The notes beneath the pieces are model-generated. The model was given only the letters and a program-made list of their open reading frames with translations. It ran no database searches and had not been told where the DNA came from. Of a stretch of DNA of 64,000 bases, positions 3,837-42,925 are shown in pieces. Made by a program: the position numbers and the translations under genes. Position 1 is the stretch's first letter. Each line of letters begins with the position of its first letter. The stretch spans positions 82,576 to 146,575 of IMG/VR virus record IMGVR_UViG_3300003332_000015; one strand, given 5' to 3'. This stretch comes from a virus (Duplodnaviria > Heunggongvirae > Uroviricota > Caudoviricetes).

Positions 3837-6104
3837 ATGTTAAAATTTAAATTTATACAGAATATAAGTAATGAAATATTTGAACAAAAATACATGGGAC
3901 CAGATGATGAAAGTGTTGATTCAATTTTTAAAGAGGTTTCTACAGAGATAGCATCTGTAGAATCTAAACCTATTAAGGATTCTTTAACAGCACTTTTTCA
4001 TGAAGAGTTATCAACTACTAGGTTTATACCTGGTGGGCGTATATTTGCAAATGCACGTTCTAAAAAAAATGTACATAATTATATTAATTGTTTTACAATT
4101 AACATTGAAGATTCTATTGAAAGTATTGCAGATGCTATAAAAGAGTATATGTTAATATTAAAAAGTGGAGGGGGAGTAGGTTTTAATGCTTCCGCAATAC
4201 GACCTGAAGGAGCTGTTATATCTACTGGTGGTATAACTTCTGGTGTAATGTCTTTCTTAGAAATTTTTAATACTGCAAGTGCCCAAATATCTGTTGCTGG
4301 AAATAGAAGAGGTGCATCTATTGTTGTTCTTAATATTGATCACCCTGAAATAGAAAAATTTATTACTTATAAACAAGGTGATGAAAATGAAGTATTAAAA
4401 CAATTTAATATTAGTGTTGGTGTATCAGATGCTTTTATGGAAGCATTAAAAAATGATGGTGATTGGGATTTAGTATTTAATCAAAAAGTTTATAAAACAG
4501 TTAAAGCAAAATACTTGTATGATTTAATAACTAAAAATGCTTTCGAACATAATGAACCAGGTCTATTTAATTTAGACACTGTTAATAAAAATAGTAATTC
4601 AAGATATTTATATTATATACAAACTGTTAATCCTTGTGGTGAACAACCTTTACCTATATATGGTAGTTGTGATTTAGGTGCATTAAATCTTTCTAAATTT
4701 ATTTTACATCCTTTTACTTCTAAATCAGTAATTAATTGGAAACAGTTAAGAGAATCAATATCGTTAGCTGTTAGATTTTTAGATAATGTATTAGATACTA
4801 CAGAATATCCTTTAAAGAAAATTAAAAAAATTGCATTGTCCGAACGTAGAATTGGATTAGGATTTACTGCATATGGTGATATGCTTAGTATGCTACAAAT
4901 TATTTATGGTAGTGAAGAAGCAAATAAGTTAACTGAAAAGTTAGGTGCTTTCTTTAGAGATGTTAGTTATGAAACATCTATTGAGTTAGCAAAAGAAAAA
5001 GGTTCTTTTAATAAATTTGATTTTAGTGGTTATTCACAAAGTGAGTTTTATAAAAGATTACCAAAAAAGATACAAAAAGATATTGAAAAATATGGTATAA
5101 GAAATATTGCTATTAATACAGTAGCACCAACAGGAACTACAAGTTTTTCTTTAGGTCAAAATTGTAGCTCTGGTATTGAACCTATTTTTTCTTTACAGTA
5201 TGATAGAACAATTCGTTTTGGAAAGGGTGATGAAACTAAGGTAGAGACAGTTTATGATAATGCTTGGTTAGAATATTTAGAGTATTTAAAAAATAATAAT
5301 TTTGAGTTTAGTGGAATACCTCCTTATTTTATAATCTCTAGTGAAGTTGATCCTTATGATCATGTTAAAGTCCAAAGTATATGGCAAACCTATATTGATG
5401 CTAGTATTTCTAAAACAGTTAATTTACCAAAAAAGTATACATTAGAACAGTACCAAGATTTATATAAATATGCTTATGATTTAGGTTTAAAAGGAATAAC
5501 TAGTTTTAACCCTAGTGGATCTATGAAAGGTATATTAGAAGATTCTGAGACAAGTAATAATGAATTAAAAAGAACTTTAGAAGGAGTTATAATTCGCCCT
5601 AAAAAAGTTCCTTGTGATATTCATGAAGTAAAGTTAGATGGTAATAACTATCTTGTTTTAGTTGGTATTTTAGATGGAAGACCTTATGAAGTTTTTGTAA
5701 CAGCAAATATAGATAAGAAAGACTATCCTATGAAGGGGAAGAAAAAAGGAGTTATACACAAAGTAAAAAAAGGGTTATATAATTTAGTTATTCCAAATGG
5801 AGAAAATCAAATTTATATAGAAGATATAACAAATAAATTTGATCCTATATACCTTACCTTAGGTCGTTTTATCTCCATGAGTTTAAGGTCTAACCATCCA
5901 TTACAGTTTATAGCAGAACAACTGCTTAAAGATAAAAATTTTGTTGGATTTGAAAAGACAGTAGGAAGAGTTCTAAAGAAATATATATCACAAGATGAAA
6001 AAGTTAAATCTTCAACAATGTGTGAGAACTGTGGTAGTACTAATTTAGTTTATCGAGATGGATGTGTTACTTGCTTAGATTGTGCAAATTCAATATGTGG
6101 ATAA
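3837..6104 (+). CDS. nrdJ: ribonucleotide reductase, class II (B12-dependent, NrdJ-like) with C-terminal zinc ribbon
   Basis: NPCGEQPLPIYGSCDLGALNLSKF active-site motif typical of class II RNR; C-terminal CxxC...CxxC. Confidence 0.75.
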   Translation: MLKFKFIQNISNEIFEQKYMGPDDESVDSIFKEVSTEIASVESKPIKDSLTALFHEELSTTRFIPGGRIFANARSKKNVHNYINCFTINIEDSIESIADAIKEYMLILKSGGGVGFNASAIRPEGAVISTGGITSGVMSFLEIFNTASAQISVAGNRRGASIVVLNIDHPEIEKFITYKQGDENEVLKQFNISVGVSDAFMEALKNDGDWDLVFNQKVYKTVKAKYLYDLITKNAFEHNEPGLFNLDTVNKNSNSRYLYYIQTVNPCGEQPLPIYGSCDLGALNLSKFILHPFTSKSVINWKQLRESISLAVRFLDNVLDTTEYPLKKIKKIALSERRIGLGFTAYGDMLSMLQIIYGSEEANKLTEKLGAFFRDVSYETSIELAKEKGSFNKFDFSGYSQSEFYKRLPKKIQKDIEKYGIRNIAINTVAPTGTTSFSLGQNCSSGIEPIFSLQYDRTIRFGKGDETKVETVYDNAWLEYLEYLKNNNFEFSGIPPYFIISSEVDPYDHVKVQSIWQTYIDASISKTVNLPKKYTLEQYQDLYKYAYDLGLKGITSFNPSGSMKGILEDSETSNNELKRTLEGVIIRPKKVPCDIHEVKLDGNNYLVLVGILDGRPYEVFVTANIDKKDYPMKGKKKGVIHKVKKGLYNLVIPNGENQIYIEDITNKFDPIYLTLGRFISMSLRSNHPLQFIAEQLLKDKNFVGFEKTVGRVLKKYISQDEKVKSSTMCENCGSTNLVYRDGCVTCLDCANSICG

Positions 6105-8929: not shown

Positions 8930-9751
8930 ATGAAGAGATATGGTTATGTCTATATAACAATTAATTCAGTTAATAATAAAAAATATATTGGACAACATAT
9001 CTCTTCTGAATTTGATTGTTTATATAGAGGTTCAGGTTCCCTCATAGTAAAAGCAATAAAAAAATATAGAAAAAGAAACTTTAAAGTAACACTTTTGGAA
9101 TGGGCGTACTCTTTAGAAGAGCTTAACTCTTTAGAACAAAAGTATATTAGAAAGTATAATGCAGTACAGTTAGACGAATTCTATAATTTAGAGTCAGGAG
9201 ATAGAAACTGTCCTTGTTCTGAAGAGAGAATTCAAAAATATAAGAATACTGTTTACAATACTATTGAAAGTAATGGGTTAACTATTGCCCAAAATATTGG
9301 TCTTAAAGTTTCTAAATCACAGAATGAAATTCAAGAAAATGGAAAAACTAAAGTACAAAATTCTGGTAAAAAGTTTTCTAAGGCAGTAACAACTACTATA
9401 CAAGAAAATGGTTTAACTATAGCACAGAATATAGGAAGAAAGTCAATAGCATCACGTAAACGAATAGAAGATAATGGTTTAACCGTTGTACAAAATACTA
9501 ATATTAAATCAGCAAAAGTTAAAAAAAATACAATATTACCTAATGGTTTAAGTATTGCTCAAGACGCATCTATAAGAGCAGCTAAAACAATGAAAAAAAT
9601 TGAGAGTAATGGAAAAACAATAAAACAAAATAGATTAGAAAAAAGACAGAAAACAATGGCTAAGATAGGTGAAGATGGATTAAATGGATTCCAAAGATCT
9701 TCACTTAGATGTAAAGAAACAAAACTAAAAAATAAGAGGAATAAAAAATGA
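8930..9751 (+). CDS. GIY-YIG homing endonuclease with NUMOD3-like repeats
   Basis: N-terminal YGYVYITIN...YIGQ (GIY-YIG) and repeated NGLTIAQNIG... units. Confidence 0.75.
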   Translation: MKRYGYVYITINSVNNKKYIGQHISSEFDCLYRGSGSLIVKAIKKYRKRNFKVTLLEWAYSLEELNSLEQKYIRKYNAVQLDEFYNLESGDRNCPCSEERIQKYKNTVYNTIESNGLTIAQNIGLKVSKSQNEIQENGKTKVQNSGKKFSKAVTTTIQENGLTIAQNIGRKSIASRKRIEDNGLTVVQNTNIKSAKVKKNTILPNGLSIAQDASIRAAKTMKKIESNGKTIKQNRLEKRQKTMAKIGEDGLNGFQRSSLRCKETKLKNKRNKK

Positions 9752-10845
9752 GTCAATCAATTGTTTTGGGTTTAGGTTTTGGAGATGAAGGAAAAGGTTT
9801 AGTAACAGATTGGTTATGTTCTAAAGTATTTAAACCTGCTGTTATAAGATATTCAGGTGGACATCAAGTTGGACATTGTGTACGTACTGAAACAGACAAA
9901 CATATTTTTTCTAATTTTGGTTCTGGTACGTTAAGAGGTGTTCCTACATTTTGGAATGCAAAGACTGTTGATCCTGTAGGATTTTGTAAGGAGTATAAAG
10001 TACTTTCTTCTTTTGATCCTATTATACAGATCGATCCCTTGTGTCCAGTTACTACTCCTTATGAAAAAGAATTAAATCAAATAAATGAAATAACAAATAA
10101 TCATGGTAGTATCGGAGTTGGTTTTGGTACTACCATTGAAAGAGAAGAAAAAAATTATCATTTGTATTTTCAAGATTTATTTTATCCACCATTACTGCAA
10201 GCAAAATTAGATAGTATAAAAAAGTATTATAGAACTGAAAAAAATATAATGGTATACCCAAAGGTTATTACACAATTTCTTAATAGTTGTCAAGAAATGA
10301 CTAAATTAGTAAAAACTGATTTAGATGTATCAGATGGATATAATCATATTTATGAAAGTTCACAAGGTCTAATGATAGATATGGACTATGGTATTTTTCC
10401 TAATGTTACACGTTCCAAATTAGGAACACAAGAACTTGAAGTAAATGAATTTACAGACTACTTTTTAGTAACAAGAGCTTATCAAACAAGACATGGAAAT
10501 GGTTATTGTTCTGATAGATCATACACTCCTTCAGGTTTTACTGTAGATGAAACAAATTTTCAAAATAAATATCAAGGTGAGTTTAAAACAAGAATTCTTG
10601 ATTTAGATTTACTAAAGTATGTAATGACTATTGATAAAGGAATAAGAGAATCTAATAGAAAGAATTTAGTTATTACATGTTTAGATCATATGAAGACTTA
10701 TGAATTTATGTATAAAGGGAAAATTGTTGTTTTTGAAAATGAATATTATTTTATACAGGCTATTGGTAATATTTTACCAAAAGTAAATTACATATATTTA
10801 AGTCATGGACCAACAGCAGAAGACATAGATTTATTTATATCATGA
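9748..10845 (+). CDS. purA: adenylosuccinate synthetase-like protein
   Basis: N-terminal GLGFGDEGKGLVTDWL P-loop and GVGFGTT motif are characteristic of PurA; shorter than bacterial PurA. Confidence 0.65.
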   Translation: MSQSIVLGLGFGDEGKGLVTDWLCSKVFKPAVIRYSGGHQVGHCVRTETDKHIFSNFGSGTLRGVPTFWNAKTVDPVGFCKEYKVLSSFDPIIQIDPLCPVTTPYEKELNQINEITNNHGSIGVGFGTTIEREEKNYHLYFQDLFYPPLLQAKLDSIKKYYRTEKNIMVYPKVITQFLNSCQEMTKLVKTDLDVSDGYNHIYESSQGLMIDMDYGIFPNVTRSKLGTQELEVNEFTDYFLVTRAYQTRHGNGYCSDRSYTPSGFTVDETNFQNKYQGEFKTRILDLDLLKYVMTIDKGIRESNRKNLVITCLDHMKTYEFMYKGKIVVFENEYYFIQAIGNILPKVNYIYLSHGPTAEDIDLFIS

Positions 10846-13371: not shown

Positions 13372-13373
13372 AC

Positions 13374-13445
13374 TGTGGATGTAGCTCAGCGGTAGAGCGG
13401 TGGATTGTGATTCCACATGTCGGGAGTTCAAATCTCCTCATTCAC
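13374..13445 (+). tRNA. tRNA-His (GUG) with extra 5' G(-1)
   Basis: 8-bp acceptor including G-1:C73, loop uuGUGau, T-arm gggag-TTCAAAT-ctcct. Confidence 0.85.
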
Positions 13446-13597
13446 CTTAACAGCGTTCGCCTACACTGTATAAATAAGAAAGGGTCGGGGGGAGCGATAC
13501 GACGAGCGTATGCGAGAGATATTTATAAAGTATGTTCACTTGAAGGGATAACCTTAACAAAGAAAACTTTATCTTTAAATCGTAAAAGGAATATAAA

Positions 13598-14306: not shown

Positions 14307-14326
14307 TAATTTTTAAGGAGATGAAA

Positions 14327-17733: not shown

Positions 17734-17740
17734 ATAACAT

Positions 17741-17820
17741 GCGATAGGCGCTGTCAGGGAACACAAGGAGTCTGTAAAACTCTTGCTTCGGCTTGGAAGG
17801 TTCGAGTCCTTCATGTCGCA
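17741..17820 (+). tRNA. tRNA-Tyr (GUA), type II
   Basis: Loop cuGUAaa, variable-arm hairpin gcTTCGgc, T-arm gaagg-TTCGAGT-ccttc. Confidence 0.8.
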
Positions 17821-17833
17821 TATATTAAATAAT

Positions 17834-18679: not shown

Positions 18680-18752
18680 TCCTCTATAGCTCAATTGGTA
18701 GAGCGTCCGGCTGTTAACCGGAAGGTTGGTGGTTCAAGTCCATCTAGGGGAG
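18680..18752 (+). tRNA. tRNA-Asn (GUU)
   Basis: Loop cuGUUaa, T-arm ggtgg-TTCAAGT-ccatc. Confidence 0.85.
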
Positions 18753-18764
18753 CTAGGAGTTATT

Positions 18765-19442: not shown

Positions 19443-19513
19443 GGCCTTATAGTATAATGGTAGTGCGGGAGATTGTCTATCTTCAAGTCAGGGTTCGACT
19501 CCCTGTAGGGTCG
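19443..19513 (+). tRNA. tRNA-Asp (GUC)
   Basis: Acceptor ggcctta/tagggtc, loop uuGUCua, T-arm caggg-TTCGACT-ccctg. Confidence 0.8.
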
Positions 19514-19637
19514 CTAAGGATAATTAAAAATGGAGAATTGGTTTCAAGACATAGAATTTTTCCTAGATGAGAAAGGGGATATTCAACCTAAAAAAAATAT
19601 TAAAAAGGATACAATTGATATTTTGGAGTTGTATAAG

Positions 19638-25282: not shown

Positions 25283-27304
25283 ATGATTATACACTCACTA
25301 GATTTAGAAAACTATGGAATTATTAAAAAAGCAAACTTAATTTTTAATGAAAAAGGGTTTAATGTATTCTCTGGTAGTACAGGACAAGGTAAATCACATA
25401 CTATTAGAGCTTTAAATTATTTACTATTTAATTATACATATGGTAAAATTGAAGATGATTGTAATTGGGATTCCAATTTCTTTTCTGCTGAAGTTAAGTT
25501 AAGTCACAATTCAAATAATTTTAAAATCTCTACTTTTTATGATAGGGATAATGGTGCAAGTAAAGAACTTGTTATTAATAATAAGAGTATAACAGGAAAT
25601 AATGAAGTTAAGGATACTCTTGCTAAATATTTTGATCCGTCTATAACAAAAGCATCTATGGTATCTTTGCAAGGTAGTATGGACATTGTTGAAGCAGGTG
25701 ATGCTGAAAGACGTGAATATTTAAAAAAAATATATGACTTAGATTTTAAAACACAAATTGATTCTATAAAAGAAGACATAGAAAATGTTAGTGATAAAAT
25801 TATTAAAATTGAAAAAGATATTTATCTGTATGAAAATAAAGAATATATACCTACTGATGAAAAAGATTCTAATGTAACAGAAGAAGAATATATTAAATGT
25901 GGACTTGAGAGAGAAGTATTAATAGTTAAAAAAGATAATTTACAACAATTACTTGATAAGGTAGATGATCTTTTACTACGAATTACAAAAGAAGAAAATA
26001 ATATTAAAACTTTACAAGAAAAAAAAGAAACTCTAGAAAATAGAACAACAGAAGTACAGAGTTCCTTAGACAAGGTAACAAAGGAAAGTAAAAATTCTCT
26101 TATTAAATATTATGCTGATCTTTTAAAACTTAATAAAGAGAAAGATGATATTGTATTAAAAAGAGTTCCTGCTTTTGATGAAGATAACTTAAACATAAAA
26201 GAAAAAGAATATGCTGATAATTTAATTTCTTTTCATAGTGCTAAAAAAGAATATGAATTAACTCAATTAGGATTATGTCCTACTTGTAAAAAACCTTTTG
26301 AAGTAACTGAAATTGAAACATATAAAAACGAATATGAAACTTCTTTAGAAAGGAAAGAAAGTAGTCTTACTGTAGTAAACAGTTTACGAAATCAAAAAAA
26401 AGATATCGATAATTTACAAAAAAAACAAAATGAACTCAAAGAAAAAAAGAATAGTCTAATAAAAGATATTAACTCATTAGACCTATTACAAAAGTCTTCA
26501 GTTACATACTCCGATGCACAAGTGTTAGATAAAACGACTATACTACAAGAAAAATTTAAAGAGATACAATTAATTTCTCTTGAAATAATATCTAAAGAAA
26601 AAGATAAAGAATTATTAATTTCTGAAAAAACCTCTATAGTAAATAAAACTACCGACCAAACTGATAACACAGATAGAATTAATGAGTTAAGATTGGTTAC
26701 TGATACTTATGAATCAATACAAATAGAAAATGATTTAATAATAAAAGCTAATATTAAATTAGCACAACAACAAATAGATGATGTTAAAAAATTACAAGAG
26801 TATACAAAAGAAAAAGTTAAATTAATAAAGACAAAAGATGAGTATGAAGTTATTAAAGAAATATTAAGAGTTGACTTTCCAAAGTTTGTTATTAACTCAA
26901 TGGTTTCAGATATTGAAAATGGTATGAATAAACTTTTAGATTTATCATACGATGGAAGATACAACTGTAGTATATCAGAATCAAAAAAAGGTTTACAAAT
27001 ACTATATGGAGATAAACAAAAAGATATTAAATTAAGCTCAGGTGGTGAACAAAATCTTTTTAATTTAGGATTTAAAAATGCTCTTACACAAATTGCAAAA
27101 CTTAAGATTTTAATACTTGATGAAGCTGATAACTTTTTAAGTGGTGACATTGCAAAAAGAGCTTTTGAAAGTTTAAACCAACTAATTGAGAACGGTGATA
27201 TCGATCAGATATTTTTAATATCACATAAAGAAGAAATTCGTGATATGATTGAAACAGATTTTAATGGAAAAATTTTCCATTTTGAAGAAGGAGAAGTATA
27301 TTAA
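25283..27304 (+). CDS. sbcC: SbcC/Rad50-like ATPase (T4 gp46-like)
   Basis: Walker A FSGSTGQGKSHT, long coiled coil with CPTC zinc hook, C-terminal ILILDEADNFL Walker B/D-loop. Confidence 0.8.
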   Translation: MIIHSLDLENYGIIKKANLIFNEKGFNVFSGSTGQGKSHTIRALNYLLFNYTYGKIEDDCNWDSNFFSAEVKLSHNSNNFKISTFYDRDNGASKELVINNKSITGNNEVKDTLAKYFDPSITKASMVSLQGSMDIVEAGDAERREYLKKIYDLDFKTQIDSIKEDIENVSDKIIKIEKDIYLYENKEYIPTDEKDSNVTEEEYIKCGLEREVLIVKKDNLQQLLDKVDDLLLRITKEENNIKTLQEKKETLENRTTEVQSSLDKVTKESKNSLIKYYADLLKLNKEKDDIVLKRVPAFDEDNLNIKEKEYADNLISFHSAKKEYELTQLGLCPTCKKPFEVTEIETYKNEYETSLERKESSLTVVNSLRNQKKDIDNLQKKQNELKEKKNSLIKDINSLDLLQKSSVTYSDAQVLDKTTILQEKFKEIQLISLEIISKEKDKELLISEKTSIVNKTTDQTDNTDRINELRLVTDTYESIQIENDLIIKANIKLAQQQIDDVKKLQEYTKEKVKLIKTKDEYEVIKEILRVDFPKFVINSMVSDIENGMNKLLDLSYDGRYNCSISESKKGLQILYGDKQKDIKLSSGGEQNLFNLGFKNALTQIAKLKILILDEADNFLSGDIAKRAFESLNQLIENGDIDQIFLISHKEEIRDMIETDFNGKIFHFEEGEVY

Positions 27305-27669
27305 TGACATTAGATGATTATCAAAAAAAGACTGCTGAAACAGCAATCTACTTAAATAAAGCAAAGGCTTTAAAACCAACACCAGAACAAATGTTTAAAA
27401 TGATTGAATTAGGTTACTTAGGAAATGGACTTGGAGAAGCAGGTGAAATACAAGGTAAACTAAAGAAAATAATTAGAGACAAGGGTGGTAATTTTGATTC
27501 AACCGATGCTAAAGAAATTGAAAAAGAAATTGGTGATGTACTTTGGTATTTAGCTCGTCTTTGTGATGTACTTGGTATTAGTTTACAAAGTGCTATGGAA
27601 GGAAATATTGAAAAACTTTTCAGTCGTAAAGAAAGAGGAGTTTTAGAAGGTAACGGTGATAACAGATGA
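27304..27669 (+). CDS. mazG: MazG-like nucleoside triphosphate pyrophosphohydrolase
   Basis: EAGEIQGKLKK...EIGDVLWYLARL motif. Confidence 0.75.
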   Translation: MTLDDYQKKTAETAIYLNKAKALKPTPEQMFKMIELGYLGNGLGEAGEIQGKLKKIIRDKGGNFDSTDAKEIEKEIGDVLWYLARLCDVLGISLQSAMEGNIEKLFSRKERGVLEGNGDNR

Positions 27670-28268
27670 TTATAATAATTTCAGGGCATAAACAAACAGG
27701 AAAAAATACAGTAACAGATTTTATTATAAGTGAATTTAATTTTACTGAGTATGCTTTTGCAGGTCCTATAAAACAAATTTGTAAAGTTGCATTTGGGTGG
27801 GATGAATCTTATTTTAAAAGTACAGATAAAAAAGAAACTATTGACCTTGAATGGGGTATTTCACCTCGTCAAGCATTACAATGGATTGGAACAGAAGGTT
27901 TTCAATTTGGATTATGTAAAGCTTTTCCTACTTTTGAAAAGAAAACAGGAAGACATATTTGGGTTGATAAATTTATACAAGATTTTAAAAATGGTGAATT
28001 TAATTGGAATCAGAATAATGTAATTATTTCAGATAATAGATTTCCTCATGAATCAAAAGTAATTAAAGACAAGTTAATCCATATACCAATATTACTTGTA
28101 AAAATAGTTAAGAAAGATACTGTAAAAAATGATATGCACTTTTCAGAAATTGCAATTGATGATTTACCTTATGATGTTATAATTAATAATGATGGTACTT
28201 TAGATGACTTACTACAAGAAACTATTACTAAAATATCACCTTATATAAACGGAAGGAGCAGTAAATGA
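27666..28268 (+). CDS. deoxynucleoside monophosphate kinase (T4 gp1-like)
   Basis: N-terminus IIIISGHKQTGKNTVTDFII, FAGPIKQICKVAFGW and C-terminal VIINNDGTLDDL parallel T4 gp1. Confidence 0.85.
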   Translation: MIIIISGHKQTGKNTVTDFIISEFNFTEYAFAGPIKQICKVAFGWDESYFKSTDKKETIDLEWGISPRQALQWIGTEGFQFGLCKAFPTFEKKTGRHIWVDKFIQDFKNGEFNWNQNNVIISDNRFPHESKVIKDKLIHIPILLVKIVKKDTVKNDMHFSEIAIDDLPYDVIINNDGTLDDLLQETITKISPYINGRSSK

Positions 28269-29200
28269 TTATTGTACAACCAACATTTGTAGATATGCTA
28301 AAAGATGTTGATACTCATATCTATAAAGTTATTGAAAGGGCAGGAAGAACTGCTTATAAGTCAGAAGATAAAATTACAGATAATTCATCAGAAAGTTTTA
28401 TTAAAAAGATAATTAAATTAGAGCATGAAGCTGTACTTGAGCATGGTACTATATATCTACATGTAAGTAGTGAAATATTTAATTTAATATTTGAACACGA
28501 ATCTTTTATATTTTTTAATTGGGTGAAAGAGGACAGAGAAAAGCATAATTATATTATATCAGCTAGTGTAAGATCATGGAGAAATTTATTAAGGGAACTA
28601 TACAGTAATTATTCAAAGTATGCTGGTCAGATAATCTATTCAAAATTAAATGGTGAATATCCTTTATTGTTTTCAGATATAACTAATTATGATGATATAC
28701 CTAATATAGATAAATACTGTGAAATAATGGATCCTATTACTATATTAGATTTTTTTCCACAGTTATATAGATTTTCAATTAAATTTATTACTGATAGAGG
28801 TGTTAGTCATGAATTAGTTAGACATCGTAGATGTTCTTATTTACAAGAAAGTACCAGATACTGTAACTATAGTAAAGATAAATTTAATAATCAAATATCA
28901 GTTATTGAACCACTTGCATTTAAAGATAATAATGTTTTATTACAAACTTGGAAAGAAAGTGTTGAATGTGCAGAAAAAAGTTATTTTAAATTACTTGAGC
29001 AAGGAGCTTTACCACAAGAAGCTAGGGCAGTTTTACCTATTGACTTAAAAACAGAAATTATTGTAACTACTTCTTTAAAAGAATGGGAATACATTTTTTC
29101 TTTAAGAACTTCACCAAAAGCACATCCTCATATAAGATCTTTAATGTTACAAGTTAATAAATACTTTCATGAACAGTACGGAGACCTAATAGATGATTAA
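28265..29200 (+). CDS. thyX: flavin-dependent thymidylate synthase ThyX
   Basis: ThyX signature RHRRCSYLQES (RHRx7S). Confidence 0.85.
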   Translation: MIIVQPTFVDMLKDVDTHIYKVIERAGRTAYKSEDKITDNSSESFIKKIIKLEHEAVLEHGTIYLHVSSEIFNLIFEHESFIFFNWVKEDREKHNYIISASVRSWRNLLRELYSNYSKYAGQIIYSKLNGEYPLLFSDITNYDDIPNIDKYCEIMDPITILDFFPQLYRFSIKFITDRGVSHELVRHRRCSYLQESTRYCNYSKDKFNNQISVIEPLAFKDNNVLLQTWKESVECAEKSYFKLLEQGALPQEARAVLPIDLKTEIIVTTSLKEWEYIFSLRTSPKAHPHIRSLMLQVNKYFHEQYGDLIDD

Positions 29201-30008
29201 TACACTTGATACAAAAGTTTTAACTCTTCCTCTTGTTAGAGAATTAATAGAAGAATGTAAAAGTGAAGATGATAACTATATTAAAATAAACTCTAAATAT
29301 GATGTTGACCTACATATAAAGTATGTAAAAGATCAAAAAAGATTATTTATAATTTTTCAAGGTAGTTCCTCATGGAAAGACTGGTTATTAGATTTTAGTT
29401 TTATTAAAAAACCTTATAAAAGAATGGATAAACTATTTTTTGCACATTCAGGATTTTTAAATGCTTATCATTCTATTAGACAATTTATACATAGTCAATT
29501 ACCAAGATACGAAGATGTTCAATATATAAGTATTAGAGGACATAGTTTAGGTGGTGCTTTAGCTGAGTTATGCTATGAAGATTTAAAATGGCATAAAGAA
29601 CATAATAGTGATGTATACAATTTTGAGATAGACGGAGCTACTACTGGAGCACCAAGAGTATGGTCTATACTTTGGGGTTATAAAGAAATAAAAAATAGAA
29701 TGAAAAATTTTATTAGAATCGAAAATAAAAATGATATAGTAACTCGTTTACCTTTTTCTTTTTTACTATTTAAACATATAGGTAGAAAGTTTCGTTTAGG
29801 TAAAAGATTTTGGTATCCTTTACTAGCTAGTGCAATTTATAATCACTCACATTCCTCTTACGTAGGAAGAGCGGGTGACATAGAGAATTATGTAGATACC
29901 GAAGATAATAATCCATACTATACAACTTCTGTTTTAAGTGTATATGTATATTTTTATCCAATTCTGTTTTGCATAATCTTTTTACTTTTCACTTTAAAAA
30001 TTACATAA
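29193..30008 (+). CDS. class-3-lipase-like alpha/beta hydrolase with C-terminal TM segment
   Basis: GHSLGGA nucleophile-elbow motif; hydrophobic C-terminus. Confidence 0.45.
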   Translation: MINTLDTKVLTLPLVRELIEECKSEDDNYIKINSKYDVDLHIKYVKDQKRLFIIFQGSSSWKDWLLDFSFIKKPYKRMDKLFFAHSGFLNAYHSIRQFIHSQLPRYEDVQYISIRGHSLGGALAELCYEDLKWHKEHNSDVYNFEIDGATTGAPRVWSILWGYKEIKNRMKNFIRIENKNDIVTRLPFSFLLFKHIGRKFRLGKRFWYPLLASAIYNHSHSSYVGRAGDIENYVDTEDNNPYYTTSVLSVYVYFYPILFCIIFLLFTLKIT

Positions 30009-30060
30009 TAAATATTATTATAATAGTAACAAATAAATTTAATAAGGAGAATAATATTCA

Positions 30061-30381
30061 GTGTTTGTAGAATTAAAAGATGGTATTGAAATAGACAATA
30101 TAACATGGACAGGGTCTTTCACTCCAATATGCACTATTGGTAAATTGCCTTTTATGGCTGATATAACAATTGAGTTTTCACCAAAGACACAATTGTTAGA
30201 GTACATTGCTTTTGAGAAAGCTATGAAAGAAAGACTAAATGGAAAAGATATGATTATAGAAGAGATTCCTTCTATAATACTCAATGATGTAATAAAAGAT
30301 TTTGATGTATATGAAATCTCAATTACAGTAAAAGCGGAAACTACTGTCCATAATAAGATAGAAGTTTCTTTATTAAGATAA
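30061..30381 (+). CDS. QueF-like (T-fold, 7-cyano-7-deazaguanine reductase-like) protein
   Basis: FTPICTIGKLPFMADITIEF parallels the QueF catalytic-Cys region; placed directly upstream of a YhhQ-family transporter. Confidence 0.45.
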   Translation: MFVELKDGIEIDNITWTGSFTPICTIGKLPFMADITIEFSPKTQLLEYIAFEKAMKERLNGKDMIIEEIPSIILNDVIKDFDVYEISITVKAETTVHNKIEVSLLR

Positions 30382-30390
30382 GGGAAAAGG

Positions 30391-31011
30391 ATGACTTTAA
30401 ATTTTAAGAAAACATTTTTAATTGCATTGTTTATGACATCACTTGTTATAGCAAATGTAATTTCAAGTAAGATTGTACAATTAGGAAGCTTTATTGTACC
30501 AGGAGCATTTATACTATATGCTATCACATTTTTAGCGACCGATTTAATAAGTGAGCTTTACGGTAAAGCCTCAGCAAAGATGGTTGTTAATGTTGGATTT
30601 TTTGTTTCACTGTATGCGGTAGGGATGATTTATTTAACTAAATTGATGCCAGTACCAATATTTGGTATTGATGTATCAAATGCTTATGACATACTACTTG
30701 GTAATAGTTGGAGAATTGTACTTGGTTCAATGATTGCATACTATGTATCACAAACATTAGATGTATGGTTGTTTCATAAGATTCGTACTAAAACAAAAGG
30801 TAAGTATAAATGGCTTAGAAATAACTTATCAACTATGACAAGTCAAATGGTTGATACAGTAATTTTTATTACTATTGCTTTTGCAGGTGTTATACCAGGT
30901 ATCGGTTGGATGATTGTATCACAGTATATAGTTAAGATTATAGTAGCGGCTTTTGATACACCAATTTTTTACTTATTGACACACAATAACAAAATTATTT
31001 TAGAACAGTAG
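30391..31011 (+). CDS. yhhQ: YhhQ/QueT-family (DUF165) queuosine-precursor transporter
   Basis: Multi-pass membrane protein with the IANVISSKIV...ATDLISELYG start typical of the family. Confidence 0.7.
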   Translation: MTLNFKKTFLIALFMTSLVIANVISSKIVQLGSFIVPGAFILYAITFLATDLISELYGKASAKMVVNVGFFVSLYAVGMIYLTKLMPVPIFGIDVSNAYDILLGNSWRIVLGSMIAYYVSQTLDVWLFHKIRTKTKGKYKWLRNNLSTMTSQMVDTVIFITIAFAGVIPGIGWMIVSQYIVKIIVAAFDTPIFYLLTHNNKIILEQ

Positions 31012-31020
31012 ATATATTAA

Positions 31021-31053
31021 AACCGTCTTTCTTTATGTTAGACGGTTTTTTTA
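31021..31053 (+). terminator. rho-independent terminator after the transporter gene
   Basis: aaccgtct...agacggtt stem followed by T7. Confidence 0.7.
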
Positions 31054-31059
31054 TGATTT

Positions 31060-31113
31060 TTTTTAAATTCTTTTTAAAAAGTTTTAAAAAAATATTATTA
31101 TATAAGTGTAAGG
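31060..31113 (+). promoter_or_regulatory. phage promoter motif upstream of pnk
   Basis: tttaaaaagttttaaaaaaatattattatataagtgtaagg. Confidence 0.55.
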
Positions 31114-31121
31114 AGATTGGA

Positions 31122-32003
31122 ATGCAAACAGTTTATATAATGAAAGGACTTCCTGCATCAGGTAAGTCAACAAAAGCAAAACAGATGGTAGAAATGTCTA
31201 GTGGTAATCTTAAAAGAATTAATAAAGATGATTTAAGAGCTATGATGGATACTAAGTGGAGTAGAGAAAGAGAGAAACTTGTAATTGCTACAAGAGATTC
31301 TATTATTAGAACTTGGCTTTTTGAAGGGTTTGATGTAGTTGTTGATGATACAAATCTGGCAAAAAAACATATTACAAGAATTGAATCAATTGTGAACGAA
31401 TATAATAAAAAGTATAACAAAGAAGCAATAACAAAAATTATTGATTTCTCTTATACTGTAAGTGTTCACGAGTGTTTACGTCGAGATCGTAAAAGAGAAA
31501 ATCCTGTTGGTGATGATACTATATGGAGAATGTATAGTCAATTTATTGAATGGACAAAACCTGAAGTAAAAAAAGATAATAGTAAAGAAGATGTTTATCT
31601 TTGTGACTTAGATGGAACTATTGCTTTACATAATGGTAGAAATCCTTACTTATATGAAGAGTGTATACATGACTTACCTAATATGCCGGTTGTTAATGTT
31701 ATAAGGGCACTTATTAAATCTGATTTTAAAGTTGTATTTGTTACAGCAAGAGAAGATATTGGTAACTCAAAATCATTAACAATACAGTGGATTGAAGAAT
31801 ATATTGGTTTAAAAGATCCTATAGTTATTACAAGGGAATTAGGTGATAACAGAAATGATGGTATTACTAAAAGAGAAATGTATAACAAATATATTTTTCC
31901 TAAGTATAATGTTATTGGTGTATTTGATGATCGTAAAAGAGTTATTGATATGTGGCGTGATATGGACATCATGGTTTTTGATGTTGCAGGTCATACGTTT
32001 TAA
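31122..32003 (+). CDS. pnk: polynucleotide 5'-kinase/3'-phosphatase (T4 Pnk-like)
   Basis: N-terminal P-loop GLPASGKST plus C-terminal HAD motif LCDLDGTIA; start at ATG 31122 after AGGAG. Confidence 0.85.
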   Translation: MQTVYIMKGLPASGKSTKAKQMVEMSSGNLKRINKDDLRAMMDTKWSREREKLVIATRDSIIRTWLFEGFDVVVDDTNLAKKHITRIESIVNEYNKKYNKEAITKIIDFSYTVSVHECLRRDRKRENPVGDDTIWRMYSQFIEWTKPEVKKDNSKEDVYLCDLDGTIALHNGRNPYLYEECIHDLPNMPVVNVIRALIKSDFKVVFVTAREDIGNSKSLTIQWIEEYIGLKDPIVITRELGDNRNDGITKREMYNKYIFPKYNVIGVFDDRKRVIDMWRDMDIMVFDVAGHTF

Positions 32004-32014
32004 AGGAGATATAC

Positions 32015-33013
32015 ATGTTAGAAAAAACTATGAAACAAATTATAACAAAAAAAATAAATAAATGGACAGATACTATAACTGATGACACAGTTATAAAAGC
32101 TATTCAAAAAGATTTAATTATAACTGGAGGTTGTTTTACAAGTTTTATTCAAAATGAAGAACCAAAAGATTATGATTGCTATTTTCGTACTAAAGAGACA
32201 GTTTTAAAAGTAGCTGACTACTATGTTAATATATGGAATGAAAATCATAAAGGACAAAAAAATAAGATTGGTGAGACCACTAAAGTATTTGTTTTAGAAG
32301 GTGGTAAACCTTCAGCTGATTTTTTAAAGTACTATCAAATTGATAAGTTGGAAGAATCAGCTTCACGTATGATAGCAAACACACCATCTGACAGAGTTAA
32401 AATAATTTTTCCTTCTGATGGTATTGTTGGAGACCCTGCAGAAGTTAGGGCAAATGAGGAATTAGGAACTGTTATAGCAAATATTGAAGAAATAGATGAA
32501 GTAAAAGCTGATGAAATTCTTGATAAAGAAAGAACATCTTATTTTCCAGTGTTTATGTCTACTAATGCAGTTACTCTAAGTGACGGTATTCAACTTATTG
32601 TACGATTTTATGGTGAGCCTGATGAAATACATTCTACTTACGATTTTGAACATACAAAAGCGTATTATGATATTAAAGATAAAGAAATAGTAATACCAAG
32701 AATAGTATACGAAATGGTAGTTAATAAAACATTAAGATATACTGGTAGTAAATATCCTGTAGCTTCTTTATTCCGTCTTCGAAAATTTATTAATAGAGGG
32801 TGGACAATAAACGCTGGACAAATATTAAAGATTTCAATGCAAGTTTCTGATTTAGATCTTATGGACATTGATGTTTTAGAAGATCAATTAGTAGGTGTTG
32901 ATAGTGTATACTTTATGAATTTAATAGAACAGTTTCGGAAACAAAAAGAAAGTGACGGTAACTTTGAATTAAGTACCGGTTATGTAATGTCGATTGTTGA
33001 TAAAATATTTTAA
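32015..33013 (+). CDS. putative Pol-beta-superfamily nucleotidyltransferase
   Basis: ITGGCFTSF...DYDCYF fits a G[GS]x9-13DxD pattern; weak. Confidence 0.35.
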   Translation: MLEKTMKQIITKKINKWTDTITDDTVIKAIQKDLIITGGCFTSFIQNEEPKDYDCYFRTKETVLKVADYYVNIWNENHKGQKNKIGETTKVFVLEGGKPSADFLKYYQIDKLEESASRMIANTPSDRVKIIFPSDGIVGDPAEVRANEELGTVIANIEEIDEVKADEILDKERTSYFPVFMSTNAVTLSDGIQLIVRFYGEPDEIHSTYDFEHTKAYYDIKDKEIVIPRIVYEMVVNKTLRYTGSKYPVASLFRLRKFINRGWTINAGQILKISMQVSDLDLMDIDVLEDQLVGVDSVYFMNLIEQFRKQKESDGNFELSTGYVMSIVDKIF

Positions 33014-33022
33014 GGAGTTTAA

Positions 33023-33544
33023 ATGCTTGATTATAATACTGTAGATGTTTTAAATGGTCAATTGATGAATAAAGTAATAAGTGAAAGACCTAATATACTT
33101 AATACTGAATGTCTTACTTATCCTATTAAAGGACAAGAAATACAAATTAAAGTTACACATGGTCAAATTACATTTTTTAACATGGAAGAATATGATAAGG
33201 ATATTTTAAAAGTTTCCAAATTATTTTCTGAAGATGCTTTTACTTTATTTCGTTATCTTCCAGTAGATGTTTTATACATTATTGGTTTTTATAAAGATAA
33301 TAAATATTATATAGTAGACATCGCCGGTGATAGTAAAAGACTTGGTTTTAGATATTATCTACCTACAATGATTAGTAAAGTTTTTAATATAATACATATT
33401 AAGAATCATGTTCCTATATCAGATAAACCTAAACTACTTTCTAATATTATTAACTCAGATAAATTTACTAACTGTATTATAAAACCATGTGACTATAACA
33501 TTATGTTAGATGAAGAAGAAAAATTAACATTTCGAAAGGGGTAG
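33023..33544 (+). CDS. hypothetical protein
   Basis: ORF with RBS GGAG. Confidence 0.45.
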   Translation: MLDYNTVDVLNGQLMNKVISERPNILNTECLTYPIKGQEIQIKVTHGQITFFNMEEYDKDILKVSKLFSEDAFTLFRYLPVDVLYIIGFYKDNKYYIVDIAGDSKRLGFRYYLPTMISKVFNIIHIKNHVPISDKPKLLSNIINSDKFTNCIIKPCDYNIMLDEEEKLTFRKG

Positions 33545-33547
33545 AAA

Positions 33548-34681
33548 ATGCTTAAGCTACAAGAGTTTATTAAAGAACATCCTCTTAATTTTCAAGAGTT
33601 TCTTTCAGAGAAACCTTATTGTATTAAGATGCAGGAAGACAAACATTTTATGTTATTTAAATATTCCCAAATCGATAGTGATTTCACTAATCAGCTTGTA
33701 AGAGAATGTCGAGGTATTATACTTGATAAAAATGATTGGTCTATTGCTTGTCACCCCTTTCACAAGTTTGGTAATTATGGTGAATCGTATGTTCCTGAAA
33801 TTGATTGGGATTCAGCTAAAGTACAGGAAAAACTTGATGGTTCTTTAATTAAATGTTGGTATAATAAATATGAAGATAATTTTCAATGGTCCACTAATGG
33901 AACTATTTATGCAAGCTCAGCAAATTTACAAGTACCATTAAATGGATTTGACAATTTTGATCAACTCATAAGTTATACATTAATGTCTATAGGGAAGACA
34001 ACAGTTACATCTATGATGATGAAAGAGTATACTTATTTATTTGAACTATGTACTCCTCATAATAGAGTAGTAGTACCACATAAAGATTTTGAATTATATC
34101 ATTTATCAACTAAACATAATGAAACAGGAAAAGAAATAATTCAAATATTAATGATGCCTGTCCCTAAAGTTTACTCTTTATTAACATTGGAAGAATGTAT
34201 TGAAACAGCAAATGAGTTACCTTTTAATGAAGAAGGTTATGTAGTAGTTGATGATAAATTAAATAGAGTTAAAATTAAGTCACCAGCTTATTTAGCTATA
34301 CACCATTTAAAAGGTGAAGGTATTGTTTCTGAAAAAAGAGCATTAGATTTAATAAGAATGAACGAGCATAAAGAATTTCTTTACTACTATGATGAGTATA
34401 CAGATTTTTTTGATGATTTAGAAAAAAGATATAATCAATTTATGGAAATTATAGACTATGATTTAGATGAAGCAAAGAGTTTTATACATACAAAAAGAAA
34501 AGTATTTGCACATTGGGCAAATACTTATTCTGTATTACCTTCTGCATGTTTTCAGTTTTATGATGGTAAAATTAAAACAGCAAAAGAGGCTATAACTAAT
34601 ATGACTAGTGAAAGGATGCTACCTCATTTAAAGAATGTACTCATTTTAAATATGGAAGGTGAGATTGGTAAAGGGTTATAA
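33548..34681 (+). CDS. rnl: RNA ligase (T4 Rnl1-like)
   Basis: Motif I EKLDGSLIK (KxDGS) at ~residue 95; co-located with pnk. Confidence 0.6.
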   Translation: MLKLQEFIKEHPLNFQEFLSEKPYCIKMQEDKHFMLFKYSQIDSDFTNQLVRECRGIILDKNDWSIACHPFHKFGNYGESYVPEIDWDSAKVQEKLDGSLIKCWYNKYEDNFQWSTNGTIYASSANLQVPLNGFDNFDQLISYTLMSIGKTTVTSMMMKEYTYLFELCTPHNRVVVPHKDFELYHLSTKHNETGKEIIQILMMPVPKVYSLLTLEECIETANELPFNEEGYVVVDDKLNRVKIKSPAYLAIHHLKGEGIVSEKRALDLIRMNEHKEFLYYYDEYTDFFDDLEKRYNQFMEIIDYDLDEAKSFIHTKRKVFAHWANTYSVLPSACFQFYDGKIKTAKEAITNMTSERMLPHLKNVLILNMEGEIGKGL

Positions 34682-42924: not shown

Positions 42925-42925
42925 A

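Follow-up and report, generated by a model that had tools for sequence, protein, structure and literature searches.

Phages known to carry 7-deazaguanines in their DNA acquire them through DpdA, which exchanges bases on the DNA itself and does not involve the nucleotide pool (PMC6884629, PMC10516641); DpdA is now viewed as the signature of such DNA (PMC10516641). Two T-fold enzymes each form a stable cysteine thioimide with preQ0 (PMC5485725): QueF, the NADPH-dependent preQ0 reductase known in unimodular form from Bacillus subtilis (PDB 4f8b) and phages Dp-1, phiSM and HVTV-1, and QueF-L, the archaeosine synthase of Crenarchaeota (Pyrobaculum calidifontis, PDB 5jyx and 5k0p), whose substrate is preQ0 already in tRNA. 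All phage QueF proteins examined by Cui et al. retain the NADPH motif (PMC10516641), and we also read it in the phiSM and Dp-1 sequences. Transporters of the YhhQ/QPTR family salvage precursors for bacterial tRNA queuosine: Escherichia coli YhhQ carries preQ0 and preQ1, but substrates vary within the family, and a Chlamydia member imports queuine only (PMC11130926).

We analyzed a 64-kb stretch (the window) from a hydrothermal vent phage, more than half of whose genome lies beyond it. The region of interest and its downstream neighbors contain the following genes:

27304..27669, + strand: MazG-like nucleoside triphosphate pyrophosphohydrolase, 121 aa (PF03819, phrog_229)
27666..28268, + strand: dNMP kinase of the T4 gp1/T5 type, 200 aa (PF21448 DNMK, phrog_139)
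28265..29200, + strand: ThyX, flavin-dependent thymidylate synthase, 311 aa (PF02511, TIGR02170)
29193..30008, + strand: class-3 lipase/esterase with a hydrophobic C-terminus, 271 aa (PF01764, E = 1.5e-19; phrog_21992)
30061..30381, + strand: mini T-fold protein, 106 aa, pI 4.6, first gene of the cassette (profile, AF2 model, Foldseek)
30391..31011, + strand: YhhQ/QPTR-family queuosine-precursor transporter, 206 aa, second gene of the cassette (PF02592, TIGR00697)
31035..32003, + strand: polynucleotide kinase-phosphatase of the T4 Pnkp type (PF25109 HAD_PNKP, E = 9e-35, and AAA_33; phrog_505, E = 4e-68)
33548..34681, + strand: RNA ligase 1 of the T4 RnlA type (PF09511, E = 1.4e-13; phrog_562, E = 1.8e-50)

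The first-pass annotation had read MazG, the gp1-like kinase, ThyX, a QueF-like protein and YhhQ as one operon hinting at a modified nucleotide pool. All five genes are present at these coordinates on the + strand, and the MazG, gp1/T5-type kinase, ThyX and YhhQ/QPTR identities each score above the curated family cut-off. MazG, the kinase and ThyX each overlap the start of the gene that follows (stop/start codons at 27666/27669, 28265/28268 and 29193/29200), and gaps of 52 and 9 nt separate lipase, T-fold gene and YhhQ, making a single operon from MazG through YhhQ plausible; in DNA of 28% GC, scanning for promoters and terminators tells nothing (90 promoter-like sites against 86 expected). 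The lipase, left out of the annotation, which placed the later genes 'two genes on', sits between ThyX and the cassette without an evident tie to either. Downstream, YhhQ directly adjoins Pnkp, which together with RNA ligase 1 provides an RNA-repair context. We consider it probable that the two genes at 30061-31011 form a conserved phage cassette salvaging a 7-deazaguanine base and that 27304-29200 is a separate, canonical dNTP supply, the two being unrelated units placed end to end.

The T-fold gene has a GTG start and an AAGGAG ribosome-binding site 11 nt upstream. Of the gene identifications, QueF-like was the least secure: alone, the product matches nothing in Pfam, reaches 22 bits with NCBIfam QueF-II (cut-off 86.9) and finds QueF-L in the PDB at E = 0.12. 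The profile of its family, about 75 members (75 remote homologues), matches QueF-L at 2.5e-9, QueF at 1e-5 and GTP cyclohydrolase I at 1.4e-5, and Pfam QueF is reached by 45 of 73 members (E of 0.01 or better). Some sources label family members QueF. The AlphaFold model (pLDDT 92.9) predicts a confident T-fold that appears closest in structure to archaeosine synthase: the best Foldseek match is QueF-L in its covalent preQ0-thioimide form (5jyx), with TM 0.85/0.87 and an rmsd of 1.9 Å over both whole proteins. Nearly invariant are Cys24 (72/73), Glu67 (73/73) and His97 (72/73), and in hhalign alignments Cys24 falls on the catalytic cysteine of QueF and Glu67 on QueF Glu97. The catalytic Asp common to QueF and QueF-L is Phe or Tyr in 71 of 73 members, however, and the QueF His is Ile or Val in 69 of 73, so thioimide chemistry is not guaranteed. 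Both NADPH-motif lysines are also replaced, mostly by acidic residues (the second by Glu or Asp in 68/73).

With QueF-L the phage protein shares a minimal single T-fold (106 versus 109 aa) that superposes end to end, an aligned nucleophilic cysteine, a Glu after the second helix and the absence of the QueF NADPH motif. The two are only about 20% identical, and the phage family differs in having Phe/Tyr for the general acid/base Asp (Cys+7), Ile-Glu for the His-Glu pair and, in the last strand, an invariant His97 of its own; its constant genetic partner is a transporter gene, not arcTGT. It is also strongly acidic: of 57 core members, 53 have a pI under 6 and not one is basic, a profile like that of QueF and different from the QueF-L core (pI 7.8), which argues for a free-base substrate. 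Unimodular QueF shares with it the T-fold, the catalytic Cys, the motif Glu (E78 equivalent), the anchoring Glu and an acidic, free-base-type character, and is found in phage 7-deazaguanine islands beside DpdA and a transporter. Unlike QueF, the mini protein has neither the N-terminal extension nor Asp62, His96 or either lysine of E(S/L)K(S/A)hK(L/Y)(Y/F/W). The C-terminal T-fold of GTP cyclohydrolase I (FolE) aligns without gaps over a C-x-x-x-x-x-P-F-x-G...I-x-Y-x-P stretch and the anchoring Glu, with Foldseek TM scores of 0.75-0.83, Pfam GTP_cyclohydroI matches in 24 of 73 members, and His97 one residue past the position of zinc ligand Cys181. The phage protein is half the size, however, and has no N-terminal helical domain; it lacks His112/His113, His179 and Cys181 and hence the zinc site. 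The QueF-like assignment therefore stands at the level of fold and profile, whereas the name QueF fails on the NADPH motif, Asp and His. We rejected both QueF and QueF-L as identities, given the loss of Asp, His and both lysines and the family's own His97; this is an uncharacterized family, kin of QueF-L, QueF and GTP cyclohydrolase I.

YhhQ begins 9 nt past the T-fold gene. It matches PF02592 at E = 1.4e-51 and TIGR00697 at 151 bits (equivalog cut-off 51), but the E. coli-type model NF008406 at merely 46 against 252, which leaves its substrate undefined by the family model. Its nearest homologue in an isolated phage is that of Fusobacterium phage phiFN37 (48.5% identity). As in bacterial salvage, a transporter of this family would import a base for a transglycosylase; unlike there, it is phage-encoded, operonically joined to a T-fold enzyme and free of any preQ1 riboswitch found at the cassette. 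We know of no pairing of YhhQ with a mini T-fold enzyme in bacteria.

The two genes adjoin each other in all 11 independent, non-redundant loci (GC 28-61%), although the YhhQ proteins are just 22-25% identical across loci. In six of the nine loci long enough to judge (L003, L005, L007, L009, L012 and L020), a DpdA-type DNA transglycosylase is encoded no more than 3 kb away, often accompanied by QueC and ParB-like genes. Together, the adjacency and the DpdA linkage indicate that the pair is a real 7-deazaguanine salvage module, which bears out the 7-deazaguanine part of the original suggestion. QueC adjoins the cassette in three loci (L006, L007 and L020), which is odd if preQ0 is the imported base. 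L008 has a neighboring QueD-like gene, and class-I methyltransferases flank the cassette in L012 and L003. The related loci resemble the DpdA islands of phages 9g, CAjan, Dp-1, phiSM, iggy and phiFN37 in grouping genes for a ParB-like protein, DpdA, a precursor transporter and in some cases QueC in one block near terminase genes. Here, by contrast, the cassette stands alone in the window, without DpdA, ParB or preQ0-synthesis genes and between nucleotide-supply and RNA-repair genes, and the modifying enzyme is the mini T-fold protein rather than QueF, Gat-QueC or ArcS2.

For substrate, chemistry and destination we infer the following route. YhhQ would bring a precursor of queuosine across the host membrane, its family pointing to preQ0 and/or preQ1 as the likeliest cargo, and the free base would be the substrate of the acidic T-fold protein, which probably assembles into a homo-oligomeric ring as QueF and QueF-L do. 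Glu67 may anchor the 2-aminopyrimidinone face while Cys24, in the manner of QueF and QueF-L, forms a covalent thioimide by attacking the nitrile, and His97 could stand in for the lost Asp/His as acid/base. Because both NADPH-motif lysines are replaced, the follow-up chemistry is most likely NADPH-independent, giving an amidine- or amide-type product or plain preQ0 capture rather than reduction to preQ1. The product would then pass to a transglycosylase; with DpdA 0-3 kb away in most related phages, the base presumably ends up in phage DNA there.

The upstream genes call for no such chemistry. MazG matches PF03819 (E = 2.6e-8, 34.5 bits, cut-off 22) and phrog_229 (E = 2.3e-33), and its single match in the PDB sequence search is B. 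subtilis YpjD (E = 1.5e-3), with none to MazZ; it lies outside the T-fold/YhhQ cassette. The kinase matches PF21448 (E = 7.9e-21, 75 bits, cut-off 27) and phrog_139 (E = 9.2e-42), and ThyX matches PF02511 (E = 5.2e-33) and TIGR02170 (95.7 bits, cut-off 87.9). The RHRxxS...SxRY motif of ThyX is legible in the translation as RHRRCSYLQESTRY, and this canonical form argues for ordinary dTMP synthesis. Two further genes had been cited upstream, and both are confirmed:

3837..6104, + strand: ribonucleotide reductase, one large chain, 755 aa (PF02867, E = 2.4e-114)
9748..10845, + strand: short PurA-like adenylosuccinate-synthetase paralogue, 365 aa (PF00709, E = 2.2e-31)

MazG, the kinase, ThyX and the reductase are generic phage nucleotide-supply genes and so do not testify to a modified pool; 27304-29200 would be an ordinary dNTP-supply block with canonical precursors as its output. 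The proposed non-canonical pool is also unsupported by the known biology of 7-deazaguanine DNA, in which DpdA exchanges bases (PMC6884629, PMC10516641).

Where the salvaged base goes in this phage is less clear-cut than in its relatives. As first reported, there is no DpdA/TGT homologue in the window, a result that held through five tests: custom HMMs of 6 and 129 sequences gave a best E of 4, the window contains no DSGA[FY]/S.DSSSW motif, PHROGs gave no DpdA signal on its large unknown ORFs, and Pfam TGT, an insensitive test, was negative. QueC, QueD, QueE, FolE and every other preQ0-synthesis gene are likewise absent from the 64 kb, as is a ParB-like partner. A DpdA outside the window (in the other 70-80 kb) or too divergent to detect could nonetheless insert the base into DNA, a destination to which we give slightly less than an even prospect; the fuller version, in which 7-deazaguanine replaces or modifies guanine while kinase, MazG and ThyX tune the pool, is held just as tentatively. 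The linkage in six of nine informative loci favors it, as do the isolated phages phiFN37 (ParB-DpdA-x-YhhQ) and Dp-1 (QueF-QueC-QueD-QueE-FolE-QueT-DpdA), the unseen part of the genome and seven window ORFs of 240-690 aa without a family match; DpdA subfamilies were missed in modified phages before DpdA3 and DpdA4 were defined (PMC10516641). Against it, the DpdA-free 64 kb carry the phage's nucleotide-metabolism and replication genes, and the pool element is at odds with base exchange on DNA and leans on generic genes and a PurA-like protein that is no PurZ. Alternatively, the cassette may raise precursor supply so that the Tgt of the host places it at position 34 of GUN-anticodon tRNAs, those of the phage as well as the host's own, improving the decoding of very U-rich NAY codons or hardening tRNAs against anticodon nucleases beside the Pnkp/Rnl1 tRNA repair genes. 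The window encodes all four potential queuosine substrates:

13375..13446, + strand: tRNA-His (GTG) (ARAGORN; Rfam tRNA 66.7 bits)
17740..17821, + strand: tRNA-Tyr (GTA) (ARAGORN)
18680..18753, + strand: tRNA-Asn (GTT) (ARAGORN; Rfam 70.8 bits)
19443..19514, + strand: tRNA-Asp (GTC) (ARAGORN; Rfam 53.1 bits)

They belong to an array of 23-25 tRNAs 6 kb from the cassette; Pnkp, a Gad2-family protein and Rnl1 directly follow the cassette, and the window further encodes PTH2, a second RNA ligase, HAD_SAK_2 and an RF-1-domain protein. NAY makes up 19.7% of all codons, 82-85% of them NAU, and DpdA is missing here while relatives hold it within 3 kb. For the 48 phages that have preQ0 genes but no DpdA, Hutinet et al. 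proposed a boost to the Q content of host tRNA (PMC6884629). Four GUN tRNAs, however, are expected in a near-complete set and so represent no enrichment, and tRNA genes are absent from the other two cassette loci without DpdA, L013 and L006. Bacterial Tgt requires preQ1, and a T-fold protein without the NADPH motif is a doubtful reductase; no preQ1 riboswitch, queA, queG or tgt was found nearby, and we know of no experimental demonstration that a phage raises Q. We regard the tRNA destination as a serious contender though rather unlikely, and a fate other than DNA or tRNA as somewhat less likely again.

The T-fold protein might instead be a divergent but working preQ0 reductase, with another reductant or binding mode, supplying a preQ1-specific DpdA or Tgt. 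Beyond the 45 of 73 members that reach Pfam QueF, and the QueF names given to some, Cellulophaga phage phiSM QueF (133 aa) can be aligned with a family member along 98% of its length (29% identity) and complements an E. coli queF deletion (PMC10516641), and the methyltransferases in L012 and L003 could act on an aminomethyl group. But phiSM QueF retains Asp and a perfect ELKSLKYY motif, whereas the mini family has lost Asp, His and the second lysine as described, lacks the roughly 30-45-residue N-terminal extension and stays at 22 bits with QueF-II, and we judge this reading unlikely. Far more improbable is a 2-aminoadenine (Z) genome, or some other rewiring of the purine pool, brought about by the PurA-like enzyme, MazG and the kinase. 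A short PurA homologue in a phage with MazG and a dNMP kinase would suit it, and some RefSeq records give homologues a PurZ-type name. Its P-loop, however, reads GDEGKG and keeps an Asp where 147 phage PurZ/PurZ0 sequences have Ser in 100% of cases (PMC12884076), a test by which this idea already appears close to refuted. Its best PDB matches are bacterial PurA alone (E about 1e-18), with no PurZ chain below 1e-3; no DatZ, MazZ or DpoZ partner (HD-domain DatZ, DUF550, family-A polymerase) adjoins the gene, and MazG is 17 kb off without a MazZ match. These features rule it out as PurZ, and with the Asp retained it no longer points to a non-canonical pool. Its neighbors encode a GIY-YIG protein and a SLOG protein, and its phage homologues come from large Vibrio, Rhizobium and Mycobacterium phages.

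A reading of the genes at window positions 27304–31011 as a modified-nucleotide operon had been put forward in the first-pass annotation. Its gene coordinates and labels were right: MazG, the dNMP kinase, ThyX, the lipase and YhhQ all score above their Pfam gathering scores, and ThyX and YhhQ also pass the NCBIfam equivalog cut-offs. The starts and stops of the six genes overlap or lie close together on the + strand, which carries all genes of this 28% GC window:

27304–27669, + strand: MazG; Pfam gathering score passed
27666–28268, + strand: dNMP kinase of the T4 gp1 type; PF21448, 75 bits against a cut-off of 27; phrog_139, E = 9e-42
28265–29200, + strand: ThyX; RHRRCS...STRY motif read; TIGR02170, 95.7 bits against 87.9; Pfam gathering score passed
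29193–30008, + strand: class-3 lipase/esterase with a hydrophobic tail; Pfam gathering score passed
30061–30381, + strand: mini T-fold ORF of 106 aa; GTG start with a good Shine–Dalgarno sequence
30391–31011, + strand: YhhQ/QPTR queuosine-precursor transporter (COG1738), full-length match; PF02592, 175 bits against 27; TIGR00697, 151 bits against 51

The lipase gene, which lies between the ThyX and T-fold genes, overlaps the ThyX stop codon. Promoter and terminator consensus scans gave what shuffled sequence would give in such AT-rich DNA and do not define the limits of a putative operon. The window matches an uncultured phage of a hydrothermal-vent metagenome (SRR3223410/PRJNA312413), whose assemblies measure 135,084 bp (ENA) and 146,575 bp (JGI), with ~70–80 kb of genome beyond the window. 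A megablast search with 27304–32003 against 50,697 phage records returned zero matches. Exact-protein look-ups with the window ORFs 423–1268, 1271–1732, 2741–3826 and 6199–6897 gave no match, an exact 37-mer was absent from IMG/VR, and scanning metagenomes with the three closest homologues yielded a single contig of 1.6 kb.

The 106-aa ORF had been called QueF-like, a label that is correct for the fold and incorrect for membership of QueF or of the archaeosine synthase QueF-L, an amidinotransferase. Taken alone, the ORF had no match in Pfam (Pfam QueF included) or in PHROGs; it scored 22 bits with NCBIfam QueF-II (TIGR03139) against a curated cut-off of 86.9 and reached E = 0.12 against QueF-L in the PDB. 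A tblastn search of the 50,697 phage records gave no match at E ≤ 1, and a word-index protein search retrieved only the query itself. Word-index searching being insufficient, the family was found because an exhaustive HMMER search was used, which yielded 75 relatives, mostly of 100–120 aa. The family profile matched QueF-L best among PDB entries (E = 2.5e-9), then Bacillus subtilis QueF (1e-5) and GTP cyclohydrolase I (GCH-I; 1.4e-5), and Pfam QueF and GTP_cyclohydroI were matched by 45/73 and 24/73 family members, respectively. An AlphaFold model built with 34 homologues as input has a pLDDT of 92.9. Its best PDB match by Foldseek is 5jyx, the preQ0-thioimide form of QueF-L (TM 0.85/0.87, RMSD of 1.9 Å over 102 columns), in a superposition that spans both proteins end to end. 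Profile, model and Foldseek agree, and the T-fold assignment stands.

We set residue equivalences by hhalign profile alignments to Dp-1 QueF, phiSM QueF and Dp-1 FolE and measured conservation as column counts over 73 family sequences. Cys24 aligns with the nucleophilic cysteine of QueF and is retained in 72 of the 73; the anchoring glutamate is retained in all 73. The last-strand His97, also present in 72/73, lies one residue past the position of the GCH-I zinc ligand Cys181. The mini T-fold shares with QueF the fold and an aligned counterpart of the catalytic cysteine that forms the preQ0 thioimide but lacks the NADPH motif, the catalytic aspartate and the QueF histidine. The aspartate position (Asp62 in B. 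subtilis QueF; Asp28 in QueF-L, seven residues past the cysteine) holds F or Y in 71/73 sequences and Phe31 in the window protein, and the histidine position ahead of the anchoring glutamate (QueF His96-Glu97) holds I or V in 69/73. The NADPH motif E(S/L)K(S/A)hK(L/Y)(Y/F/W) fails: the window protein reads E-Y-I-A-F-E-K-A, and across the family the first lysine is replaced by E, I or V and the second by E or D (68/73). The QueFs of Dp-1 and phiSM, by contrast, have both the motif (ESKSLKLY and ELKSLKYY, respectively) and the aspartate.

With QueF-L, the mini T-fold has in common a minimal T-fold (~109 aa in QueF-L), an aligned cysteine and the lack of the NADPH motif, but its family replaces the Asp28 general acid/base by F or Y. 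This aspartate is the general acid/base common to QueF and QueF-L (PMC5485725). In the analysis of Cui et al., every phage QueF had the NADPH motif and no phage QueF aligned with QueF-L (PMC10516641). Because the motif and the aspartate occur in the Dp-1 and phiSM QueFs and not here, the mini T-fold is, on sequence criteria, a separate uncharacterised T-fold family, neither QueF nor QueF-L. We considered the experimentally validated phiSM QueF as a member and excluded it as a canonical short QueF. The predicted pI of core members is below 6 in 53 of 57 cases and above 8 in none (median of 4.9), compared with 7.8 for the aligned QueF-L core. The family is thus acidic, like the free-base enzyme QueF and unlike the tRNA-acting QueF-L, whose preQ0 substrate is already inserted in the nucleic acid, and this predicted acidity argues, if only indirectly, against nucleic-acid binding.

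The strongest functional evidence at hand is the linkage between the T-fold gene and YhhQ. The two genes directly adjoin each other in 11/11 non-redundant loci, namely the window and ten related loci with T-fold homologues (L003, L005, L006, L007, L008, L009, L012, L013, L016 and L020), in which the partner is a YhhQ/Vut_1 gene. These loci range from 28% to 61% GC, and their YhhQ proteins share identities of just 22–25%. This consistent adjacency suggests that the enzyme acts on the cargo of the transporter. The window YhhQ scores 46 bits with the E. coli-type transporter model NF008406 against a cut-off of 252, and substrate specificity differs among QPTR members (PMC11130926).

For the DNA transglycosylase DpdA, Pfam TGT (PF01702) was dropped as a detector after it failed to pick up the DpdA-like proteins in L007 and in L012. 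Because it is blind to such phage DpdAs, we built our own HMMs of 6 and 129 sequences, seeded with Dp-1 DpdA and DSGA[FY] / S-x-DSSSW look-alikes; these recover the annotated DpdAs of Dp-1, phiSM and the Fusobacterium phage phiFN37. None of the best 120 of 1520 DpdA-profile matches in 5.8 billion proteins carries a precomputed Pfam domain, so Pfam-based screens under-report DpdA. Among the same 120 listed matches, none comes from a contig of 135,084 or 146,575 bp, the assembly lengths of this phage.

In six of the nine loci of sufficient length (L003, L005, L007, L009, L012 and L020), a DpdA gene is found no more than 3 kb from the cassette. The cassette is adjoined by QueC in L006, L007 and L020 and by a QueD-like gene in L008; ParB-like genes stand beside it in L007, L012 and L013, and terminase genes usually come next. 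The T-fold/YhhQ cassette is normally part of phage 7-deazaguanine DNA-modification islands, and the initial intuition of 7-deazaguanine DNA modification was a good one for these related loci, where the cassette keeps company with DpdA, QueC and ParB-like genes. The metagenomic phage islands at L007 9324–12407, L012 7294–10926 and L020 8175–10979 are compact, comprising ParB-like, DpdA, QueC or class-I methyltransferase, mini T-fold and YhhQ genes without FolE, QueD or QueE. Where QueC stands beside the importer, the imported base is perhaps not preQ0, and in such islands it could be CDG or ADG. In the isolated phage phiFN37, the gene between DpdA and YhhQ (L017 6568–7002) was tried as a mini T-fold and proved to encode an unrelated 144-aa protein, which may be a non-homologous alternative partner of the transporter.

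The window itself had been described as free of DpdA and TGT homologues, which holds across its 64 kb by Pfam, custom HMMs, motif scan and PHROGs. Pfam searches of nearly all + strand ORFs of at least 90 aa found no TGT, FolE, QueC, QueD or QueE; the best window E-values with the 6- and 129-sequence DpdA HMMs were ~4–6; and a DpdA motif scan of the window was empty. PHROGs searches with 13 unannotated ORFs of at least 200 aa identified a DNA methyltransferase, RIIA/RIIB and a DnaC-like loader, and no DpdA. This negative result covers the 64-kb window, with HMM seeds other than DpdA2–4; ~70–80 kb of the genome lie beyond it, and seven window ORFs of 240–690 aa match no family. The transporter is the one candidate base source in the window. 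Two of the related loci, L013 and L006, have no DpdA over ~20 kb. The window alone does not show that the DNA is modified. The DNA methyltransferase (phrog_799), encoded at 7035–7640, gives this phage at least one DNA-modification gene of conventional type; the RIIA/RIIB homologues lie at 55525–59155.

We found no evidence for the non-canonical dNTP pool that the neighbouring genes had suggested: the kinase, MazG, ThyX and RNR are ordinary, the ThyX motif is canonical and the PurA-like protein is not PurZ. Many phages carry gp1-type kinases, MazG, ThyX and RNR for nucleotide supply, and the gp1-type dNMP kinase family occurs widely among phages whose DNA is canonical, such as T5; membership of this family alone would not imply specificity for a modified dNMP. 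The known 7-deazaguanine DNA modification is a base exchange on DNA and does not proceed via dNTPs (PMC6884629, PMC10516641).

A PurZ-dependent 2-aminoadenine (Z) genome was likewise rejected. The P-loop of the PurA-like protein, GLGFGDEGKG, keeps the aspartate that is replaced by serine in 100% of phage PurZ/PurZ0 (PMC12884076), and partners are missing: for the Z-pathway companions DatZ, MazZ/DUF550, DutZ/DmtZ and DpoZ, the window has no HD, DUF550 or PolA match. The nearest matches of the PurA-like protein are bacterial PurA enzymes; it has homologues in ~190-kb Vibrio, ~200-kb Rhizobium and mycobacterial phages, and neighbours a GIY-YIG protein and a SLOG/YspA-like gene (10842–11267). At 365 aa, this PurA paralogue (9748–11267 region) seems short of the usual C-terminal part, and its gene overlaps the SLOG/YspA-like gene. 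Because that part is apparently missing, its nucleotide specificity may differ from the usual.

What survives of the original interpretation is the 7-deazaguanine link of the cassette, while the kinase, MazG, ThyX, RNR and PurA-like genes drop out as ordinary. The T-fold/YhhQ pair within 27304–31011 is probably a 7-deazaguanine salvage cassette. Fold, residues and gene linkages are what we observe, and from them we infer substrate, chemistry and destination. YhhQ would import preQ0 and/or preQ1, and an acidic T-fold oligomer would hold the free base via Glu67. Cys24, helped by His97, would attack the nitrile to form a thioimide, which would then be resolved without NADPH, and the product would be taken up by a transglycosylase.

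We put the chance that the base is destined for DNA in this phage, through an unseen DpdA, at slightly below even. A reasonable competing destination is tRNA, with host Tgt loading the imported base as queuosine (Q). Directly 3′ of the cassette lie genes for a T4-type Pnkp, a Gad2-family protein, a protein without an assigned role and Rnl1, and the window also encodes PTH2, a second RNA ligase, a HAD_SAK_2 ‘Swiss-army-knife’ RNA-repair phosphatase and an RF-1-domain protein. Its 23–25 tRNA genes include all four of the Q family (His-GTG, Tyr-GTA, Asn-GTT and Asp-GTC), although a near-complete set would be expected to contain these anyway. NAY codons make up one fifth of all codons, and the NAU share of 82–85% among them fits the tRNA destination, which also echoes a proposal for DpdA-less phages (PMC6884629). 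However, the T-fold enzyme is unlike a reductase, and the other DpdA-less loci, L013 and L006, have no tRNA genes. We searched the cassette for a preQ1 riboswitch or other RNA element and found none, the sole match being a meaningless miRNA (E = 0.42). On this balance, we consider loading of tRNA rather unlikely, and a destination other than these two unlikely.

A further, distinctly improbable scenario joins several of these elements. Mini T-folds, with their conserved cysteine, glutamate and histidine, would be a new class of 7-deazaguanine enzymes, NADPH-independent and taking the free base directly from the YhhQ importer. Their product would not be preQ1 but perhaps an amidine, an amide or a base unseen before, which DpdA puts in DNA, and this tRNA-rich vent phage, without DpdA in the window, would re-use the cassette for tRNA modification or protection beside Pnkp and Rnl1. 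Such tRNA re-use, if true, would be the first phage module devoted to anticodon-loop queuosine chemistry.

Phage 7-deazaguanine DNA modifications comprise eight known derivatives and four DpdA subfamilies and protect against restriction enzymes and Cas9. To our knowledge, all known post-preQ0 tailoring enzymes (QueF, Gat-QueC, ArcS2, DpdL, DpdM and DpdN) are tied to a specific base. The mini T-fold family could provide a missing step or make a new base, because it has a distinct residue set, always occurs with the importer (from 28% to 61% GC) and is usually near DpdA. The window offers a natural contrast, a cassette without DpdA among tRNA-repair genes, which touches a long-standing hypothesis in which certain phages alter the queuosine of host tRNAs. 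What appears new here is the uncharacterised T-fold family; the 7-deazaguanine system is already known, and the context of the cassette here, a DpdA-less window with RNA-repair genes, is atypical.

The RNA-repair and translation-rescue genes form an unusually dense set at 22465–22833, 31035–34681 and 41798–46186, comprising PTH2, Pnkp, the Gad2-family protein (PF26128), Rnl1, DUF5662, HAD_SAK_2, the second RNA ligase, with a PHA02142 OB domain and an RNA_ligase domain, and the RF-1-domain (ArfB-like) protein. A 656-aa ORF without a Pfam or PHROG match lies inside the tRNA array (14288–16258). Rfam tRNA matches at 12798–12913 (116 nt) and 21357–21477 (121 nt), both uncalled by ARAGORN, and at 13283–13373 (90 nt, with an odd anticodon loop) may represent phage tRNAs with introns or other unusual features. 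At 22882–22954 lies an amber-suppressor tRNA (anticodon CTA), called ‘Pyl’ by ARAGORN; stop usage over 51 ORFs is TAA 36, TGA 10 and TAG 5, and this tRNA could serve partial stop-codon read-through or late-gene recoding.
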